Positions 2,252 through 32,000 of a stretch of DNA of 32,000 nucleotides are shown one piece after another (within the stretch, counting starts at the first letter, position 1; the number at the start of each line of letters is the position of its first letter). Under the pieces are notes generated by a model. It ran no database searches, was not told the origin of the DNA, and saw only the letters and a program-made list of their open reading frames with translations. This stretch comes from Candidatus Iainarchaeum sp. (GTDB taxonomy: Archaea; Iainarchaeota; Iainarchaeia; Iainarchaeales; VGJJ01). The translations under genes were made by a program, and so were the position numbers. The DNA is taken from NCBI GenBank assembly GCA_030688545.1, contig JAUYHT010000002.1:330001-362000 (forward strand), read 5' to 3'.

Positions 2252-2551
2252 ATGCCTACCCAGATCCCCATAAACAGGACCATCTTCAAGCATCCTATCG
2301 ACCGGTACCCCCGCCTGGACACGGTGTTGATGATTGAGGAGGTGCTTCGAGATGCAGGTGGAGACTTTTCGGTCAGGGAAATCTGGAAGAGATTGCCCAA
2401 GCAGGTGATGTGGCAAACGTATCTGACAGTCCTGGATTACCTGGAATATTCGAACAAAATACTCATTGATCCTCGGGATAACCATCCGATATGGATTTGG
2501 GATCCTGAAGGGGTGGCCGAGGCCAAACGGAAAGGGGTCATTGTTCATTAA
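2252..2551 (+). CDS. Small winged-helix-like protein, function unknown
   Basis: 99-aa ORF with a TATA box at about -27. The segment FSVREIWKRLPKQVMWQTYLTVLDYLEYSNKILID has a winged-helix look. It converges tail to tail with the RelE-like gene. Confidence 0.55.
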   Translation: MPTQIPINRTIFKHPIDRYPRLDTVLMIEEVLRDAGGDFSVREIWKRLPKQVMWQTYLTVLDYLEYSNKILIDPRDNHPIWIWDPEGVAEAKRKGVIVH

Positions 2552-2892
2552 TACCCAAACCGGCGCTCATAGTCCTTATGACTCAACCATTCTAAGATAA
2601 TGGCTAAAACTTCTAAGTCGTTTCCCCTGAGGAAATAGAGTAGCCGCCATCCATTCGGTAAATCGTATTTGAAAAGATTCGTAATTCTGTATTTGACCAC
2701 ATATTCTTTTGGCCACAATTTTTTGGGCACCTTGATCCCACCAATCGGGTTTTCTTTCAAATCGATAAAAGCCTTATCAATATAATCGGCCAAACGACGA
2801 TCTTCGAAGGGCCCTTTTCGCAGCCGATCAAGGTGATATTCCAACTGGCTATCGACCATTACTATTCGATAAATAGGAGGGACCCTAGCCAT
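2548..2892 (-). CDS. RelE/ParE-superfamily-like toxin
   Basis: The C-terminal core LFKYDLPNGWRLLYFLRGNDLEVLAIILEWLSHKDYERRF resembles RelE-fold toxins. Its start overlaps the stop of the upstream wHTH gene by 8 nt. Confidence 0.6.
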   Translation of the reverse strand: MARVPPIYRIVMVDSQLEYHLDRLRKGPFEDRRLADYIDKAFIDLKENPIGGIKVPKKLWPKEYVVKYRITNLFKYDLPNGWRLLYFLRGNDLEVLAIILEWLSHKDYERRFGY

Positions 2893-3322
2893 CTCGATCG
2901 AACCGTTTCTCCAAAGCGATCACGCGGGGCACCACCACTTCGAAAGCGGCCTCATAGTCCCAAATGCTTTGATGGTCATCGGATTCGCAACAAGCCACGA
3001 GGCGGCCGAGCATTTCTTCTTCATCCACGAGGTTAACCCCCTCACGGGTGTATTCCACGAGCTGCAATCCCACCAAATCCTGAAGGATGCCGCGCACGTG
3101 GTATTGGAATAATCCCGTTTGGCGGGCGATTTCCCTCAAGGAAAGGGGGGTGGGGAGGAGTACTTGTAACACGCGGGCGTGCCATTCCATGAAACCAATG
3201 CTCTCAAACCGGGAAACGGCCTTCACTAATGTCAAATCCTTAAGATTCATGCGCGAGGCGGGGTGGGGGTATTTGGAAAAAGGGGATAGGCTCACATCCC
3301 CCGACCCAACCTCCAGCGACAT
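2885..3322 (-). CDS. wHTH DNA-binding protein, putative cognate antitoxin
   Basis: HTH segment LSLREIARQTGLFQYHVRGILQDLVGLQLVEY. Stop TAG 2885-2887 lies inside the toxin 5' end. TATA-like TATATTAC (reverse complement of 3344-3351) is about 27 nt upstream of ATG 3322. The track ORF runs on to 3373 and ATG 3250 is also possible. Confidence 0.6.
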   Translation of the reverse strand: MSLEVGSGDVSLSPFSKYPHPASRMNLKDLTLVKAVSRFESIGFMEWHARVLQVLLPTPLSLREIARQTGLFQYHVRGILQDLVGLQLVEYTREGVNLVDEEEMLGRLVACCESDDHQSIWDYEAAFEVVVPRVIALEKRFDRDG

Positions 3323-3343
3323 ATAGGCTTTCAGAATGGCTAT

Positions 3344-3351
3344 GTAATATA
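3344..3351 (-). promoter_or_regulatory. TATA box candidate for the wHTH/RelE-like operon
   Basis: The reverse complement TATATTAC is centred about 27 nt upstream of ATG 3322. Confidence 0.35.
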
Positions 3352-3620
3352 GGTGCGGTTGAAGGAAAATCAACCGGATGGTTGAGGCCAGGGTTTCACC
3401 GATGGGTTAAAAGCCTGCATTCCTACCAATCCGGGCATGAGACCGGCTGTGATCTCTTTGCGGAAACTTCCTATCAAAAAAGGGGTTCGCTTTTACTTCA
3501 CAATCAAGATCGTTGGTTTTAGCGAGCCATCGAACGAATAATTTTTCGGAGGATGGAAAATGACACATATTTCGTTTATTTAAAAAAAACATATCTGGAC
3601 TACTAAAACTGGCTGAAAAA

Positions 3621-3750
3621 ATGACTTCCTCCCCCACCTAAAGGTGAGAGTATCCAACGATTAGAATCTTGTCACCTGCTCGCGCTGTTGCGCTCGCCAC
3701 TCAAACGAACAGTCGGCCTAAAGACCGAGGTATAAAACCACAAGACGAGG
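3621..3750 (+). repeat. Composite structured element (two hairpin units plus central GCTCGCG..CGCTCGCC box)
   Basis: Unit 1 is ATGACTTCCTCCCC-CACC-TAAA-GGTG-AGAGTATCC (3621-3655). The central box is at 3678-3698. Unit 2 is GGCC-TAAA-GACC-GAGGTATAAAACCACAAGACGAGG (3715-3750). The locus at 12556-12676 has the same architecture. Confidence 0.75.
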
Positions 3751-4313
3751 AATTATTCTGTCTGCCGTTACATTTATTAATAAAAAAAAATTAATGTCAT
3801 TATAATGGACTTTTCAAAAGAGGAATTAAGTAAAATAAAGAAGGATAAAATTTTCATTAAACAAATCAATAATTCTAAATATTGGATAAAACCTCTTTTT
3901 GAGCATAAAACATATCTCTTAGGAAATGTTAAATCGCATAAAAAATATTTTCAAGCACTAAAGAAATATTTAAGAAAACACATTCCTGAAACAAAATTCA
4001 TTAAGTTTGATAAGAGAATAACTTTAATTGTCCAAAAAGATATTACAGGAAAAAAGCTAACAAAATTAAAGGAAATTAAAGAATTAATGAATTTGAAACA
4101 AAATAAGAGTTTCAGGAATGGACTTAAAAAATTGCTTGAAAATAAAAAATGGGTTATTGATTTGTATATCTATAAAGAAAATTTTATTTCTACAAAAAAC
4201 AAAGAATTATTTTATATCGATGGAAGAATGCCAATATTTCCAGAGCCAAAAGAAGATAGATATCAAATAAGTAAAAAAAGGACATTATGGCTTCTAAGGC
4301 AGACAGAATAATT
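3751..4313. mobile_element. 563-bp AT-rich cassette bounded by perfect 16-nt inverted repeats
   Basis: AATTATTCTGTCTGCC (3751-3766) has its exact reverse complement GGCAGACAGAATAATT at 4298-4313. The interior is the lowest-GC part of the window and carries one ORF. No transposase was recognised. Confidence 0.45.
3805..4311 (+). CDS. Lys-rich hypothetical protein inside the IR-bounded cassette
   Basis: 168-aa ORF. TATA-like TTTATTAA (3773-3780) lies about 28 nt upstream of the ATG. The stop codon lies inside the right inverted repeat. No confident family assignment. Confidence 0.5.
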   Translation: MDFSKEELSKIKKDKIFIKQINNSKYWIKPLFEHKTYLLGNVKSHKKYFQALKKYLRKHIPETKFIKFDKRITLIVQKDITGKKLTKLKEIKELMNLKQNKSFRNGLKKLLENKKWVIDLYIYKENFISTKNKELFYIDGRMPIFPEPKEDRYQISKKRTLWLLRQTE

Positions 4314-4360
4314 AGACATAACACCTATTAAGCGTAATAATATTACGAACAAACCCTCAA

Positions 4361-4618
4361 ATGAAACGAGTTACTAAACAAAGTGTTAAGTCAATGTATA
4401 GAAAGAAGCGCATTCTGGAAGAAGTATATACCATTAAGGAAGGAAAAAAGGAATTTTCCTTCTCTTCCAATGATATTTCATATTGGCACTCTCTTGAGGA
4501 TTTGAAGCGATATGCCAGCCCATATTTCAAATTAGTTCGAACATATGGAGATTATACTGGTGCTGAATTTAATTCCAATTTTTCGAGGCGAATGATTACG
4601 GCATGGGAAAAGGCATAG
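4361..4618 (+). pseudogene. Orphan fragment resembling the C-terminus of a class I methyltransferase
   Basis: The 85 aa end in WHSLEDLKRYASPYFKLVRTYGDYTGAEFNSNFSRRMITAWEKA. This matches the usual C-terminal pattern of small SAM methyltransferases, but no Rossmann or SAM-binding part precedes it. The reading frame opens only 8 nt after the cassette's right repeat. Confidence 0.35.
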
Positions 4619-27392: not shown

Positions 27393-27431
27393 GCATGCGG
27401 GGGTTAGGCTTAAATATCTAGGGAAAATTTT

Positions 27432-28025
27432 TCAGCCGAAGGGCTTTAATACCACGAATAAAAGGACAAATGCAAATTCAATGATTATCGCGGCCAACAA
27501 CAAGATCAAAAGACTCAAAATGAGATCAATGACGATGAAGGCGATTACATTGCCTCGTGACATTTCCTGCAGGGAACGAAACGCACGAAAAGAGATATAG
27601 ATTCCATAAAGCCAGAACAATGACCCTATCACCGGAATCCAGCTTAATGAAAAAAGGACAATATAGGGATAAAAGAGCGCTTTTACGGTGTTTTCCCACC
27701 CATGTTTGGCTCCCAATTTCACCGCAATAAAATGAGAAAAAGGAATGAGAATGAGACTGGCTACAAAGTGAAAAACTAACGACAGCACCATAAACACTAC
27801 GTCAAACCACGCTGAATCACGCGGAGCAAACGAAAAACCAAAAGGATTGGAATAATCGTATCCCAAAAAAATAAAAATACCATAAAAAACAAGATATACT
27901 ATTGCTGATACAGCTGCCCAAATCACCGCGCGATTGGGATTCTTATCCTGCTTAACATAATCGAAAAACTTGGACGGAGAGAAAAACAACCGTTTCAATT
28001 CACCAAAAATGGATGCGCTTTTCAT
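27432..28025 (-). CDS. Yip1-like polytopic membrane protein
   Basis: 197 aa. The N-terminal FFSPSKFFDYV region is followed by about 5 hydrophobic helices. It shares an ATGA overlap with the upstream gene. Confidence 0.6.
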   Translation of the reverse strand: MKSASIFGELKRLFFSPSKFFDYVKQDKNPNRAVIWAAVSAIVYLVFYGIFIFLGYDYSNPFGFSFAPRDSAWFDVVFMVLSLVFHFVASLILIPFSHFIAVKLGAKHGWENTVKALFYPYIVLFSLSWIPVIGSLFWLYGIYISFRAFRSLQEMSRGNVIAFIVIDLILSLLILLLAAIIIEFAFVLLFVVLKPFG

Positions 28026-28768
28026 AATAATCCTTGCTCCTTGAAAAACTTTGAAAAATAATTAGAAACAGGTTGACTAGTATCCGGAAGTTTTTCTCCA
28101 AAAATCGCTCCGATAGGGGCAGGTCCGTTGATAATCATCACAAAATCATCAAACTCTTTAATTTTCCATGCCGGAATATTGTCGGTAGAAAATAAATTGC
28201 CTTTATCAAACATTGATTTTCTTAAAACAAAACTCCAAAATGGGAACGATAGAATTGTTGCATCACTAACCGTAACCACATTTTCTTTTTTCATTTTGGG
28301 AGAGTCCCAAAAATTACTGAAATCCCAAGAGGAACCACCCGCCGCAATAAATAAATTATCGCCAAAAGAAACTGCAATATCTTTTACAATATTGAGTAAA
28401 TTCTTCCAGTTATTTAAGACTGTCTCATTATCGGTAGTGTTTTCATGAAAGAAAAAATGGATATTTGATAAATCTAATTGGACTAGATTAAAGTGAACGT
28501 TTTCACCTCGTAAATTTCGAGATAAAACAATATCAACATCAAAGACCACATCATCTAATTTAATGGTAATACTTCCACCCTTTATTTTATCAAATAAATT
28601 CAATATTTTTTCCTCATTCTTTGATACTTGTTCAAAGTCATTCATTGGTCCCAATTTGTATTTAGCATTGCGTCCAGAAAGGACGCCCAGAATAAGTGGA
28701 AGGGCGTCTAAAGCGTTAAATTCTATTACAGGATAAAACTTGTAATAAAATTGTTTATTCTCACTCAT
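28022..28768 (-). CDS. Hypothetical cytoplasmic protein (immunity-protein candidate by position)
   Basis: 248-aa ORF with no signal peptide or TM segment. It starts 9 nt after the stop of the giant protein and shares its low-GC 3' block. Confidence 0.55.
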   Translation of the reverse strand: MSENKQFYYKFYPVIEFNALDALPLILGVLSGRNAKYKLGPMNDFEQVSKNEEKILNLFDKIKGGSITIKLDDVVFDVDIVLSRNLRGENVHFNLVQLDLSNIHFFFHENTTDNETVLNNWKNLLNIVKDIAVSFGDNLFIAAGGSSWDFSNFWDSPKMKKENVVTVSDATILSFPFWSFVLRKSMFDKGNLFSTDNIPAWKIKEFDDFVMIINGPAPIGAIFGEKLPDTSQPVSNYFSKFFKEQGLL

Positions 28769-28776
28769 ATCAAAAC

Positions 28777-31700
28777 CTATCCATACCCTACAATTGTTAT
28801 CATATTAATATTTATCCCTGGTGCTGCTTTCACTATTTCAGCCATAATATCATTTTTTACTTCGTTATTAATTGGCTTGGTAAAGCGTATGTTAATTTTG
28901 GCTGAAGGTGCGTGCGTTGACCAGTCATTCACTTTTTTTCCTATATCCTCTATTTTTTCAATATAATTTGCGTAAGTTGTTGTCAACATGTTTGTAGTCT
29001 TCACCTCTACAAGATCACCATTCAATAACTTCCATTCCACTGGACTTACTGCACCTGGAGGTCGATATTGAAATTCAGCTAATTGCGAAACAAACTCCGG
29101 TTTTGCTCCTACTTCGATTTCCCCAAGAATTCCTTTGATATTGCCGAAATTTCCTCCTTTTACATCGTGTGCTAATTTCTTTTCTACTTTTGCCAACTCG
29201 ATTCCTGGCAATCCCCCTTGTTTTATTTTCCCAAGGCCATTAAACGTATCTTCCATATATTCTTTGGTAATTGTAAAATCTCCATCGGTTCGATTAATCA
29301 AGCTTTTTAGTGCGTTTTCTCCTCCTGGGCCGTGTTTCTGAACAACTCTTTCTGCGGATAAAATTCCTTCATCCGTGAGATTGGCAATCTTGACTCCAAC
29401 AGCGGGACCCCGTTTTATTGTTTGGGCGCTGGCATCCACGATCTCACCGCGAATCAGTTTTCCATTGGAAAGCTGGTATTCGATGAAATCCACCCCTTTT
29501 TGCAATACTTTGCTTCCCTCGGCCAATCGATCCAAAATCTTGAAATCGGGGACTTTGTTCAGCAGGAATAGGCCGGCATGCCCGATCAACCCTACTGGAA
29601 TGAGCGGGCTCGCAACATCTCCAGCCAGGAAAATGCTTTCAGCCCAGCATTTTCCGTTATTTATTTCATCGCCCCATTTGGTCAACCCGTTTTCGCACGT
29701 CCGGATGTCTTGACAGGTGGGGGTAACGAAATCGGCCATGCACTGCCCTAATTCATTGAGGGTGTAATCATAATCGAGGATGCATGTGCACAAATCCTGC
29801 GTGCTCCATGCCACCGAAATGGCATCGATGGCGGCCAATGCGAAAGGGGCCACTATGACTACCGCGGCCGGGATGAATAAGACATTTCCCGTGTAGGCTT
29901 GCCCTCCAAATCCAGGATCAGATGGTTTCAGGATGGATAGCGTCAAGACGACTTCCGATTGATTGACATCGGCAAGTGAATAGATTTGGTAGGCCCCTGT
30001 TCCGACTTCATTAGTGATTTTGTAGATGGCCCGCACCTCTCGGGATCCAAAATCCAGGTCCTTGATATAGAGCTGTCCAAACCCATTGGTATACCCTATT
30101 TCGTCCCCGTCTATTTCGACTACGACATTGGCGACCGGGTACCCATTTACGTTTTCGGCGCGTATGAGCAAATCCCCTTTCTCTTGAACCGGACAATTAT
30201 CCAGATCAAAGTATCCATAGGCGTGATTTCCGCCCAGAAAAATAGGTTTGGTGGTGGGGGAGGACCCATCCGGGCAGGCGGCGGTTAACGTATAAGAACC
30301 ATGTTTCTTGTTGATATCATGCTTTCCTTTCCCATCGGTCTTGCCGGATAGACTATTGTTTAGATAAATAGGGGCATTCCGAATGGGGGAATTGGAGTCC
30401 ATCACAATCGCGTGGATTGTGCCTGTCCCAACGAGGTTGCATTGGGGGGCGCCTTCCGAGCAACCCGCTTCGCAATATTGGATGCTACAGGTACAGCCAT
30501 TTTCAGGGTCGAAGGAACAACTGTTCAAGCGGTAATCGCCGAGGTAACAGGAGTTGTTGTAGAGGCTGCAGTCGTTCACCAATTCCATTTCCCCTAGATC
30601 CAGTTCGCCATAGAACAAGAAACACGCATTGTTCTGCGTGTCCGTGAGGGAGATGCGGGCATCGTTGAGAGTGACATTTAAACGGTAGCGATCGGAGGGG
30701 GATTGTAGCAGGAAATCGCCGAAGGAATTGGAAGTGGTATTAGTGATGAGGGTATTGTCGGTGCAGGCCCCCAAATCAAAAGGGAGGCCTGGAGATGGAT
30801 TTCCTTGAGGGGTAATGGCTTTCCCTTGCACGACCGTGGTTTCGTGGAACTGCCAGATATTTCCTCCCAAAAAACCCGTCCCGAAGGGAGAGCAATCATT
30901 GGGGCCGGTGTCAAACAGCATCTCGCCCCAGGGTACCACCAGCTTCATTTTGTAATTGCTGGCACCGGCGGCGAATACGAATTTTCCATCCGCATCGGTT
31001 ACGGCTGAGGTGACGAGTGAATCAGAACAGGTGGTGAGATTGATGGTGTAATTGGACAAGGGATTGGATAATTCATCTATCAGAAAGGCCTCATAGATGA
31101 AACCGTCCTGGCAAATATTTCCTTGGCACGCGTTGTAGAGACAATTGCTGTTTTGGGTACAGCTGCCCCCTGGATTGGTTTTACATGCTGATGGAATGCT
31201 TCCCCCGGGGGTGGAAATGTATTGCTCGTCGGCCAGGATGCTGCAAGATGTTCCAGATTGGCAGGATATGGGACCGTTCACGGTTTTGATGTCCGAATAG
31301 TTGGGACCAAAAGCCCCCAAAACCCAATACTCGCGCTCCGGTTGGGTCTGGGATTCACAATAATTGAATTTGGGGTTGACCACCCAGTAATCATCCCTTG
31401 GTTCATTGGGGGGACTATTAAGGATGGTGTGTTCAGCCCGTAAACCATCCGAATTATCGCAATCGTAATAGGCCTTCACGCGTGCCTCCCGATGGGATGG
31501 GAAGGCCGTATCGACCACGCATCCGGCGCCCGTGCAGATCTGATCGGGGACATCGACGCCGGTTAAGCATCCAAAATAATCATCCAGGATGCATGAATAC
31601 TTTTTTCCGGCGGACACTGAATTGGGGATACTGAATGAGTTGCAGGAGGTGGAAGCGCATCCCGATCCGCCGCAACCGAGCGGGTCATAATAGCAGGCAT

Positions 31701-32000
31701 CAAACACCCCGTCGTTGTTGTAGTCATAGCAGAGCATATCGGTGGATTCGCGCAAATTATAGGTAACGGGCCGGACTTTCGTGGAGGTGAAGGCAACTTG
31801 ATCCAAGTTCGTGCTTGTACCATTACTGGTAGCGGCGTCCCAGGTATCATAATTTAGAATGAAAGGGGAGTAGGAGGCGGGGGCCATACAGTGAGATTGG
31901 GTGGGGGTATCGTAGACGCAATAGCGGGATTGACACTGGGAATCCAGCGCACACAAACTTCCATTGGGAAGGCCGGTGGAACATTGATTGTTGATGCAGG
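28777..32000 (-). CDS. Giant Cys-rich surface protein, 5' end outside window
   Basis: The frame stays open to the window edge (...CINNQCSTGLPNGSLCALDSQCQSRYC...). It has Cys-rich modules and several carboxypeptidase-regulatory-like beta-sandwich repeats (for example DADGKFVF). Hydrophobic segments lie at about 29815-29895 and 29560-29640, followed by a C-terminal soluble region of about 300 aa. Confidence 0.8.
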   Translation of the reverse strand, partial: CINNQCSTGLPNGSLCALDSQCQSRYCVYDTPTQSHCMAPASYSPFILNYDTWDAATSNGTSTNLDQVAFTSTKVRPVTYNLRESTDMLCYDYNNDGVFDACYYDPLGCGGSGCASTSCNSFSIPNSVSAGKKYSCILDDYFGCLTGVDVPDQICTGAGCVVDTAFPSHREARVKAYYDCDNSDGLRAEHTILNSPPNEPRDDYWVVNPKFNYCESQTQPEREYWVLGAFGPNYSDIKTVNGPISCQSGTSCSILADEQYISTPGGSIPSACKTNPGGSCTQNSNCLYNACQGNICQDGFIYEAFLIDELSNPLSNYTINLTTCSDSLVTSAVTDADGKFVFAAGASNYKMKLVVPWGEMLFDTGPNDCSPFGTGFLGGNIWQFHETTVVQGKAITPQGNPSPGLPFDLGACTDNTLITNTTSNSFGDFLLQSPSDRYRLNVTLNDARISLTDTQNNACFLFYGELDLGEMELVNDCSLYNNSCYLGDYRLNSCSFDPENGCTCSIQYCEAGCSEGAPQCNLVGTGTIHAIVMDSNSPIRNAPIYLNNSLSGKTDGKGKHDINKKHGSYTLTAACPDGSSPTTKPIFLGGNHAYGYFDLDNCPVQEKGDLLIRAENVNGYPVANVVVEIDGDEIGYTNGFGQLYIKDLDFGSREVRAIYKITNEVGTGAYQIYSLADVNQSEVVLTLSILKPSDPGFGGQAYTGNVLFIPAAVVIVAPFALAAIDAISVAWSTQDLCTCILDYDYTLNELGQCMADFVTPTCQDIRTCENGLTKWGDEINNGKCWAESIFLAGDVASPLIPVGLIGHAGLFLLNKVPDFKILDRLAEGSKVLQKGVDFIEYQLSNGKLIRGEIVDASAQTIKRGPAVGVKIANLTDEGILSAERVVQKHGPGGENALKSLINRTDGDFTITKEYMEDTFNGLGKIKQGGLPGIELAKVEKKLAHDVKGGNFGNIKGILGEIEVGAKPEFVSQLAEFQYRPPGAVSPVEWKLLNGDLVEVKTTNMLTTTYANYIEKIEDIGKKVNDWSTHAPSAKINIRFTKPINNEVKNDIMAEIVKAAPGININMITIVGYG

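Follow-up and report, generated by a model that had tools for sequence, protein, structure and literature searches.

A low-GC C-terminal tip and its downstream partner gene as a candidate exchangeable, polymorphic toxin/immunity-like cassette on a giant archaeal surface protein

Why does the gene of a giant, cysteine-rich surface protein change its base composition shortly before its stop codon, and does this last part form a unit with the small gene that follows? The question is raised by a 32,000-nucleotide (nt) stretch of Candidatus Iainarchaeum sp. (GenBank assembly GCA_030688545.1, contig JAUYHT010000002.1, positions 330,001 to 362,000 of the forward strand), which as a whole is called the window here. 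From the sequence, the original prediction had proposed that the C-terminal tip of the giant protein is a replaceable toxin domain and that the next gene, encoding 248 amino acids (aa), is its cognate immunity gene. Our analyses of the window and of related contigs (cited by their L numbers) suggest that the tip and the next gene are probably a two-part cassette that was recombined onto the surface protein, by analogy resembling a polymorphic toxin/immunity pair. Of the original proposal, exchange of the tip, linkage of the two parts and their co-variation were corroborated, whereas the compositional foreignness of the tip and the orphan status of the small gene were not.

The open reading frame (ORF) of the giant protein extends past the end of the window. 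Its complete gene encodes 1870 aa and was found on Logan contig L001, which matches the window without a single difference over 13,979 nt. We analyzed the composition break by sliding windows, 60-nt line counts and the G+C content at third codon positions (GC3) along the 1870 codons. In sliding windows, GC dropped from about 50% to 31–39% across positions 27400–29300, and the six 60-nt counts formerly made by hand (30, 28, 38, 47, 55 and 55%) were all identical when recomputed. A maximum-likelihood change point located the fall of GC3 from 0.564 to 0.293 after codon 1655, with a support interval of codons 1651–1678, i.e., window positions 29355–29436. This supports the shift inside the giant ORF that had been placed at about 29300–29400. 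Twice the log-likelihood gain (2dlnL) was 57.2, compared with a maximum of 15.3 in 300 permutations of codon order (chi-square p = 1e-13). The composition shift is one of synonymous positions. Two dimensions given earlier had to be corrected: the low-GC end measures about 215 codons instead of about 175, and 8 nt rather than 9 nt separate the giant's stop codon from the next ATG (TAGGTTTTGATATG).

The tip is not compositionally foreign, since its GC content hardly differs from the 39.4% found for window positions 1–21800. Foreign DNA inserted in a GC-rich genome was thus ruled out as an origin of the tip, this part of the window being just as AT-rich. The GC-rich outliers are instead the bodies of two giant genes, namely the surface protein (51.0%) and an S8 peptidase. 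Over the 22 other genes of the window, GC3 varied from 0.21 to 0.70 with a median of 0.38, and ordinary genes (aminotransferase, aldehyde dehydrogenase, NUDIX, HAD, FIST and KaiC-like) had values of 0.27–0.39. The tip had also been said to share its composition with the next two genes. This is true for the low-GC partner gene directly downstream, whereas the Yip1-domain gene thereafter is intermediate (39.7% GC, GC3 0.43). In five syntenic loci of related DPANN genomes (L001, L002, L003, L005 and L006) and in the fragment L032, tip and partner likewise had a low GC3 of 0.26–0.40. In the related DPANN loci, GC3 was higher, at 0.39–0.71, for the body, for the genes of S8 peptidase and methyltransferase and for most of those of polyprenyl synthase. 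With low-GC tips and partners in all related DPANN loci examined, the dip provides no evidence of recent import and is instead a conserved cassette feature. Where GC3 drops within the giant gene varies among these loci.

Across the window (1–32000) and L001–L006, we furthermore observed two codon-composition classes that form a patchwork in the genome, the class of a gene being largely conserved between orthologues. Polyprenyl synthase, methyltransferase, S8 peptidase, MFS transporter and a GNAT gene mostly belong to the high-GC3 class; aminotransferase, Aldedh, FIST, KaiC-like, tip and partner genes belong to the low-GC3 class. Possible causes include the level of expression, biased gene conversion and old transfers.

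What argues for exchange is the comparison with homologues. Here, the upstream region and the tip evolve in a decoupled manner, and the nearest relative switches at the GC3 break, as the original prediction would have it. The body of the window protein is closest to L005 (58% identity), followed by L032 (52–53%), while in the tip, identity to either of them is no more than 24%. There the closest relatives are L003 (41%) and L002 (35%), L003 being only 29% identical just upstream. In 40-residue windows along the junction, identity to L032 fell from 45–65% to 12–27% and identity to L003 rose from 15–30% to 45%. L032 retains its 45–65% identity through the cysteine-loop module and the linker that precede the tip and falls off from residue ~1680. 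The cross-over at residues ~1660–1690 lies in the change-point interval, just after GPxVG..L..LT.EG, a motif common to the DPANN members. In the window protein, the motif GPAVGVKIANLTDEG (29365–29409), common to the DPANN relatives in alignment A1, overlaps the junction. The C-terminal domain hence varies independently of the region upstream, as in polymorphic toxins. A second tip type is common to L005 and L032 (46% identity), whose partners likewise match in type (40%); set against the tip and partner of the window, both types are nearly unrecognisable.

The tip consists of a helical subdomain followed by a core that resembles PD-(D/E)xK nucleases. Word-indexed homology searches yielded no relatives of the tip; with alignment A1 as the query, none were among the candidates of a saturated list. 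With exhaustive HMMER searches, 17 proteins matched the last 381 residues, most of them giants that likewise end in the pre-tip module described below and a homologous C-terminal domain. The homologous C-terminal domains display the pattern KG..xE.E, followed by (I)D(I)LL.NGD..E.K (alignments A1 and A2). Over 30 domains, the key columns were conserved as G (30/30), E (29/30), D/E (30/30), E/D (28/30) and K (29/30), and G1753 in the core of the tip is the invariant glycine. A single-sequence AlphaFold2 prediction of the tip was uninformative, with a predicted local distance difference test score (pLDDT) of 40.8. With a 14-sequence alignment, residues 1644–1870 (227 aa) were modelled with a pLDDT of 93.4 and a predicted template modelling score (pTM) of 0.90, confidence being high from residue ~1665 on. 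In this model, the helical subdomain is followed by an alpha-beta-beta-beta-alpha-beta-alpha-beta core. The predicted structure thus comprises the alpha-beta-beta-beta-alpha-beta succession of the superfamily (H105-118, E127-132, E141-145, E150-154, H163-183, E189-193). The conserved residues of an E...D/E...(D/E)xK arrangement are located on helix 1, strand 2 and strand 3 of the core (alignments A1 and A5; AlphaFold2 model). The original prediction had tentatively read this fold into the tip, and the motif conserved in 30 domains together with the core of the pLDDT-93 model back that guess.

In structural comparisons, nucleases of restriction-endonuclease fold dominated the top ranks, which were not significant. 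Among the top ranks of a Foldseek search of the PDB were Card1, EcoO109I, Cdn1 and Nt.BspD6I (E 0.065–0.46, template modelling (TM) scores of about 0.3). In the viral library BFVD, endonuclease I, PDDEXK, RecB and Mrr entries were found in top ranks, with a best E of 0.011. Pfam Tox-REase families were matched at E <= 1 neither by the tip of the window nor by the 18 homologues scanned with it, so that no match near a gathering threshold was obtained; NCBIfam and PADLOC yielded no match for the tip. From alignments and model, we thus consider the tip nuclease-like, with a predicted PD-(D/E)xK arrangement, although independent confirmation is weak.

The 248-aa partner gene had been regarded as an orphan. 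Indeed, its product found only itself in a word-indexed database search and had no match in Pfam, NCBIfam or PADLOC; by eye, it contains neither a signal peptide nor a transmembrane helix. However, in every related giant that we located on contigs, an ORF of 210–330 aa starts only a few bases away from the stop codon. Phmmer linked the 248-aa protein to L003_247 (E 2e-20) and also to L006_288 and L006_260, whereas BLASTP gave a non-significant E of 0.09 with the positional counterpart in L002. An iterated hidden Markov model (HMM) of the partner converged on 29 of 1976 ORFs, exactly those directly 3' of restriction-endonuclease (REase)-like tips, and recovered the counterparts in L002, L005, L008 and L024 that pairwise methods had missed. 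The partner is hence a member of a fast-evolving family that is strictly linked to the REase-like tip. Relatives of the tip were only accessible by exhaustive HMMER searches and those of the partner by comparing ORFs in syntenic position. Since word-indexed search missed families that span several phyla, its orphan calls are unreliable for fast-evolving AT-rich genes.

Wherever an REase-like tip occurs (at least 21 distinct loci), a member of the partner family follows, whereas none follows any of the six alternative tips; a Fisher test on a tally of 20/20 versus 0/6 gave p = 4e-6. This linkage extends over Diapherotrites-type contigs, Micrarchaeota, ANME-1, ANME-2 (anaerobic methanotrophic archaea) and Methanobacteriota. 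Across 16 loci, distances between tips correlated with those between partners with a Mantel r of 0.92. The partial r was 0.82 (p = 2e-4) when the module adjacent to the tip was controlled for, and the module–partner partial r was 0.45. The downstream gene is thus specific for its tip and co-varies with it across genomes, as had been predicted. A shared C-terminus of uniform composition and a lack of co-variation had been named as evidence to the contrary; neither was encountered. Outside Diapherotrites-type loci, we observed partners that are ~80 aa longer (323–337 aa) and carry a conserved C-terminal extension.

Relatives of the locus share a pre-tip module, i.e., a hydrophobic helix, a cysteine loop, a second hydrophobic helix and a linker. 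Module scans detected this cysteine-loop module in Micrarchaeota, ANME-2 (Ca. Methanogaster), ANME-1 and metagenome-assembled genomes (MAGs) of Methanobacteriota and Halobacteriota. One ANME-1 MAG holds four copies, and none was found in viral contigs. On the shared module, tips vary in the way the original prediction had envisaged, with alternative tips that have different small genes downstream of them. An alternative C-terminus with the motif GWxHI..H occurs in L010b, L016, L018, L023b, L025, L026 and P0017. These genes are followed by unrelated small ORFs, two of which resemble each other, and neither the alternative tips nor their downstream ORFs matched Pfam, NCBIfam or PADLOC. A long linker ..HYVSWWDELSQPALDGWNKALKN.. 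is shared by the module proteins L010 4826-6541, L016 8267-11218 and L018 9245-11242 as well as P0017 and P0012. The extreme C-termini of these proteins differ, with a GWxHI..H-type motif, and distinct small ORFs of 162–207 aa without Pfam match follow.

Tandem arrays, in which an REase-like tip and its partner are followed by a second module gene with an alternative tip, were present in L010, L022, L023 and L031; in L010 and L023 this second gene is again followed by a small ORF. Displaced copies of tip and partner, a trait of polymorphic toxins, are likewise found in related loci. In L006/L007, a complete displaced tip domain is fused in frame to a second partner copy, giving an ORF with the appearance of a displaced cassette. 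The partner is present twice in L024, and a 684-aa protein of Micrarchaeota (L008/L020) contains two partner domains in tandem. Tip fragments were detected in L012 and at the end of a 296-aa ORF in L008. In four independent contigs of ANME/Methanobacteriota type, we also observed the REase-like tip in a separate, overlapping frame (L019 1-836, L022 213-602, L030 2-993 and L031 404-814), for which a recurrent frameshift may be the reason, unless the genes are split or pseudogenes.

The giant protein itself has the makeup of a large exported multidomain protein with repeats, as is typical for polymorphic toxins. Its N-terminus carries a signal-like hydrophobic segment (KD19 2.51, from hydropathy only and no dedicated predictor), its body contains CarboxypepD_reg-like repeats, and cysteine makes up 6.2% of residues 661–1500. 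In the 1059-aa part encoded in the window, Pfam detected only CarboxypepD_reg-like and weak immunoglobulin (Ig)-like matches. For the 1870-aa product, the precomputed families were InhA-like_MAM and CarboxypepD_reg only, both faint. Further downstream, the topology of the pre-tip module is ambiguous. For helix 1, a crude Hessa-type dG was 0.3 here and 3–10 in many homologues. The loop after it has a net charge of -2 to -7 and contains six cysteines in the window protein and most members, four of which are invariant in the 14-sequence family alignment. For helix 2, dG was 4.4–11.8 across the family; a transmembrane helix was ruled out on these grounds, as the segment is non-canonical throughout. 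In alignment A2, its E, D, P, P and G are invariant. Helix 2 and its homologues thus carry invariant polar or helix-breaking residues (E, D, S, P, P and G..GH), which suggests a functional site, for example for processing or membrane insertion, rather than a plain anchor.

How might such a locus work? The giant gene would encode a Sec-exported, cysteine-rich, repeat-containing and adhesin-like surface protein of a DPANN archaeon. Recombination just after GPxVG..L..LT.EG probably joined to it a cassette of ~205 residues, comprising the helical subdomain and the nuclease-like core of PD-(D/E)xK type, and the 248-aa gene would have come along. In analogy to Rhs, CdiA and other polymorphic toxin systems, the tip could be a nuclease toxin that is delivered by contact or released. 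The cytoplasmic partner would then act as cognate immunity protein that binds and neutralises the tip in the producer, and new pairs of tip and partner would join by recombination at the conserved junction. Nuclease activity, toxicity, neutralisation by the partner and export or release of the tip are all conjectured from this analogy.

Several observations weigh against a delivered, exchangeable toxin. No Foldseek match to the tip model passed E 1e-3 in PDB or BFVD, Pfam yielded no match for the tip at E <= 1, Tox-REase families included, and sequence and profile searches of the PDB produced chance matches only, e.g., thymidylate kinase and adenylosuccinate lyase. Most tips after the module belong to one homologous superfamily, with GWxHI..H as the only other class seen, whereas classical polymorphic toxin systems show many unrelated tip folds. 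The window holds no displaced cassette, and the low GC of tip and partner, being conserved across loci, is by itself no evidence of recent transfer. In metagenome contigs, we found no close relatives that would reveal strain-level polymorphism. As relatives are only 24–58% identical, the exchanges must be old. The main uncertainty is topology, with helix 1 only marginal as a transmembrane helix and helix 2 not qualifying as one. If helix 1 is the sole span, the tip would reside in the cytoplasm of the producer, which does not fit a delivered toxin. The acidic, cysteine-rich loop between the helices suggests an outside location, whereas the cysteine-free tip and its slightly basic N-terminal flank point the opposite way.

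Two readings place the tip inside the cell. In the first, the surface protein is anchored in the membrane with the tip as its cytoplasmic tail, for which the 248-aa protein would act as a regulator or adaptor in the cytoplasm. Such a tail might serve in signalling from the outside in, in anchoring, or as an effector set free by an extracellular cue, and its diversification would reflect an arms race or specificity pairing instead of toxin and immunity. We regard this as possible, yet unlikely. It agrees with the strong hydrophobicity of helix 1 in the window protein, given that helix 2 is no canonical transmembrane helix across the family, and with the slightly basic flank after helix 2; the loop after helix 1, however, is acidic and rich in cysteines, unlike a cytoplasmic loop. 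The 264 residues after helix 2 contain no cysteine, in contrast to the extracellular body; translocated toxins, however, typically lack cysteines too, which we count against a tail. A single homologous tip–partner pair conserved across phyla is expected of a functional complex, and the fusion ORF of L006/L007 fits this picture. Yet alternative tips with downstream genes of their own, displaced fragments, extra partners and tandem arrays are hallmarks of toxin/immunity loci, and Pfam detected no signalling domain. Again with helix 1 as sole span, the pair might instead be a receptor-coupled effector and inhibitor rather than a delivered toxin. The body would act as a sensor in a self-destruct or signalling device with interchangeable cassettes, in which the partner keeps the nuclease inactive until binding of a virus, host cell or competitor unleashes it inside the cell. 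We consider this improbable; to our knowledge, archaea offer no described example of such a device, be it for self-destruction or for signalling.

Two further explanations would dispense with cassette exchange altogether. The GC break might reflect codon usage of gene or domain classes, or mutation bias, in a mosaic genome. The window is a patchwork in its GC3, and orthologues keep their composition class between loci, polyprenyl synthase, methyltransferase and S8 peptidase being mostly high and tip and partner low. We nevertheless judge this very improbable, because the nearest relative switches exactly at the GC3 break and the phylogeny of tip and partner is incongruent with that of the body and the adjacent module. 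The GC3 drop also lies at different positions among loci, as different junctions would predict. The source is furthermore a MAG, in which mis-joins can show as composition shifts, and the junction might be an assembly chimera. However, the reading frame is unbroken across the junction, the Logan contig is identical over 13,979 nt, and more than 20 independent contigs show the same architecture and synteny, so that a chimera is hardly credible. We hence favor the toxin/immunity-like cassette, whose features are compiled in Table 1.

Table 1. Positions of the cassette, the giant surface-protein gene and neighbouring genes in the window, and of partner variants on related contigs
Feature	Position	Strand	Remarks
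Exchangeable tip, residues ~1665-1870 + stop	28777..29397	-	38.3% GC, GC3 0.29, no cysteine
Predicted PD-(D/E)xK-like core, residues ~1748-1867	28789..29148	-	secondary-structure order H-E-E-E-H-E-H-E
Putative catalytic residue E1757	29119-29121
Putative catalytic residue E1785	29035-29037
Putative catalytic residue E1795	29005-29007
Putative catalytic residue K1797	28999-29001
Partner gene, 248 aa, candidate immunity protein	28022..28768	-	32% GC; starts 8 nt past the giant ORF stop
Chimeric junction	29355..29436	-	GC3 change point and nearest-relative cross-over, L032 to L003
Linker, residues 1611-1664	29398..29559	-	GC3-high; 45-47% identity to L032
Hydrophobic helix 2, residues 1585-1610	29560..29637	-	polar signature E.A.L.GD.ASP.IP.G..GH
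Acidic loop with conserved cysteines, residues 1529-1584	29638..29805	-	alignments A1, A2
Hydrophobic helix 1, residues 1503-1528, VLFIPAAVVIVAPFALAAIDAISVAW	29806..29883	-	KD19 2.69; marginal membrane-spanning candidate
GC-rich body of giant cysteine-rich surface-protein gene	29425..32000	-	51% GC, GC3 ~0.56-0.59
CarboxypepD_reg-like repeat	30952..31080	-	PF13620 E 9.6e-12, PF13715 E 3.2e-6
Second CarboxypepD_reg-like copy in the body	30277-30405
Yip1-domain multi-pass membrane protein	27432..28025	-	PF04893 E 2.2e-11
Giant secreted S8 peptidase, 1857 aa	21819..27392	-	Peptidase_S8, CARDB; faint DUF2341; 52.9% GC
Tip–partner fusion	L006 9042-10148, L007 7824-8930		stop-to-stop ORF, 369 codons, downstream of main tip and partner pair
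Longer (or tandem) partners	L008 12527-14578 (tandem); L009, L010, L012, L015, L017, L019, L022, L023, L030, L031

Downstream of the cassette, the start of the Yip1 gene overlaps the partner's stop codon by 4 nt (ATGA), and the gene is kept as a neighbour in some related loci (L005 and L006/L007). The S8 peptidase is a conserved downstream neighbour of the cassette in DPANN loci (L002, L005 and L006); we may speculate that it processes the surface protein. A search of the window for tRNA or Rfam elements, which could have marked an integration site, detected none. Elsewhere in the window, a ParE-toxin-like ORF (2548-2892, minus strand, PF05016 E 1e-4) shares 8 nt with a GC-rich ORF of 162 aa that lies upstream of it (2885-3373, minus strand) and has no Pfam match, and the two may be a type II toxin–antitoxin pair. 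A 168-aa ORF without Pfam match (3805-4311, plus strand; 23.7% GC, GC3 0.21) lies in a trough of 27–28% GC at 3600–4500.

In its general layout, the cassette is reminiscent of Rhs proteins, in which C-terminal displacement decouples core and tip (Jackson et al. 2009, PMC2935791). Common to both are a conserved large core and a separately evolving variable C-terminal tip that travels with a small downstream gene, the displacement of old tips downstream, a composition contrast between core and tip and a conserved junction motif. In contrast to Rhs, Pfam revealed no YD/RHS repeats in the window protein, and the PxxxxDPxGL motif is lacking. Neither of the combinations that mark Rhs and CdiA, i.e., YD/RHS or filamentous haemagglutinin (FHA) repeats with a PxxxxDPxGL or VENN junction motif, was present. 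The body here is instead cysteine-rich and CarboxypepD_reg-like, the tip is preceded by a module of two helices and six cysteines, the host is an archaeon, and displaced copies were seen in related loci only, not in the window. With CdiA-CT/CdiI and other polymorphic toxins (Zhang et al. 2012, PMC3482391), the locus shares a large exported protein with a modular, nuclease-type C-terminal tip, a cognate gene immediately downstream, tandem and displaced cassettes among its relatives and tip–partner co-variation. It differs from these in that none of the families known for trafficking, pre-toxin, toxin or immunity roles was detected and in the low tip diversity seen so far, with variants of one REase-like superfamily and one alternative class.

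Toxins of REase fold are common in polymorphic toxin systems, and Tox-REase-7 is characterized by the motif 'GxxxE, IxD, ExK, Q' (PMC3482391). Our tip family has its conserved residues in the same order, with G-x3-E in the first helix, an acidic residue on strand 2, ExK on strand 3 and frequently a downstream Q. It deviates from the Tox-REase families by the lack of a Pfam HMM match and by an extra helical subdomain of ~85 residues N-terminal to the core, and none of the listed immunity families is related to its partner. Archaeal polymorphic toxin systems are known from predictions, and as of 2021 none had been characterised experimentally (PMC8416519). Among the toxins noted in such predicted systems are PD-DExK domains (PMC6393860). 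VARTIG, which is restricted to Thermococcales, based on Ig domains and without identified toxin, resembles the locus in its large surface protein with a hypervariable C-terminus shaped by recombination and in its variable downstream genes, as do other predicted archaeal systems (PMC8416519). The kind of system is thus known, also from predicted archaeal examples. No Pfam or NCBIfam model, however, covers the pre-tip module, the tip family or the partner family. This family may already be listed among the predicted archaeal systems of Makarova et al. (2019; cited in PMC8416519 and PMC6393860).

Taken together, the locus points to a coherent system whose parts have no match to known families, i.e., the two-helix six-cysteine module, a new PD-(D/E)xK-like tip family and a new, strictly linked partner family. 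The system spans DPANN and methane-cycling archaea, being common to DPANN members, ANME-1, ANME-2 and Methanobacteriota, all of which live either closely together in consortia or on hosts. If the cassette is what we propose, it comprises a pair of small domains of about 205 aa and 248 aa that would be directly testable in a heterologous host. If the tip is a delivered nuclease, the pair would provide a testable handle on archaeal cell–cell antagonism or host exploitation.

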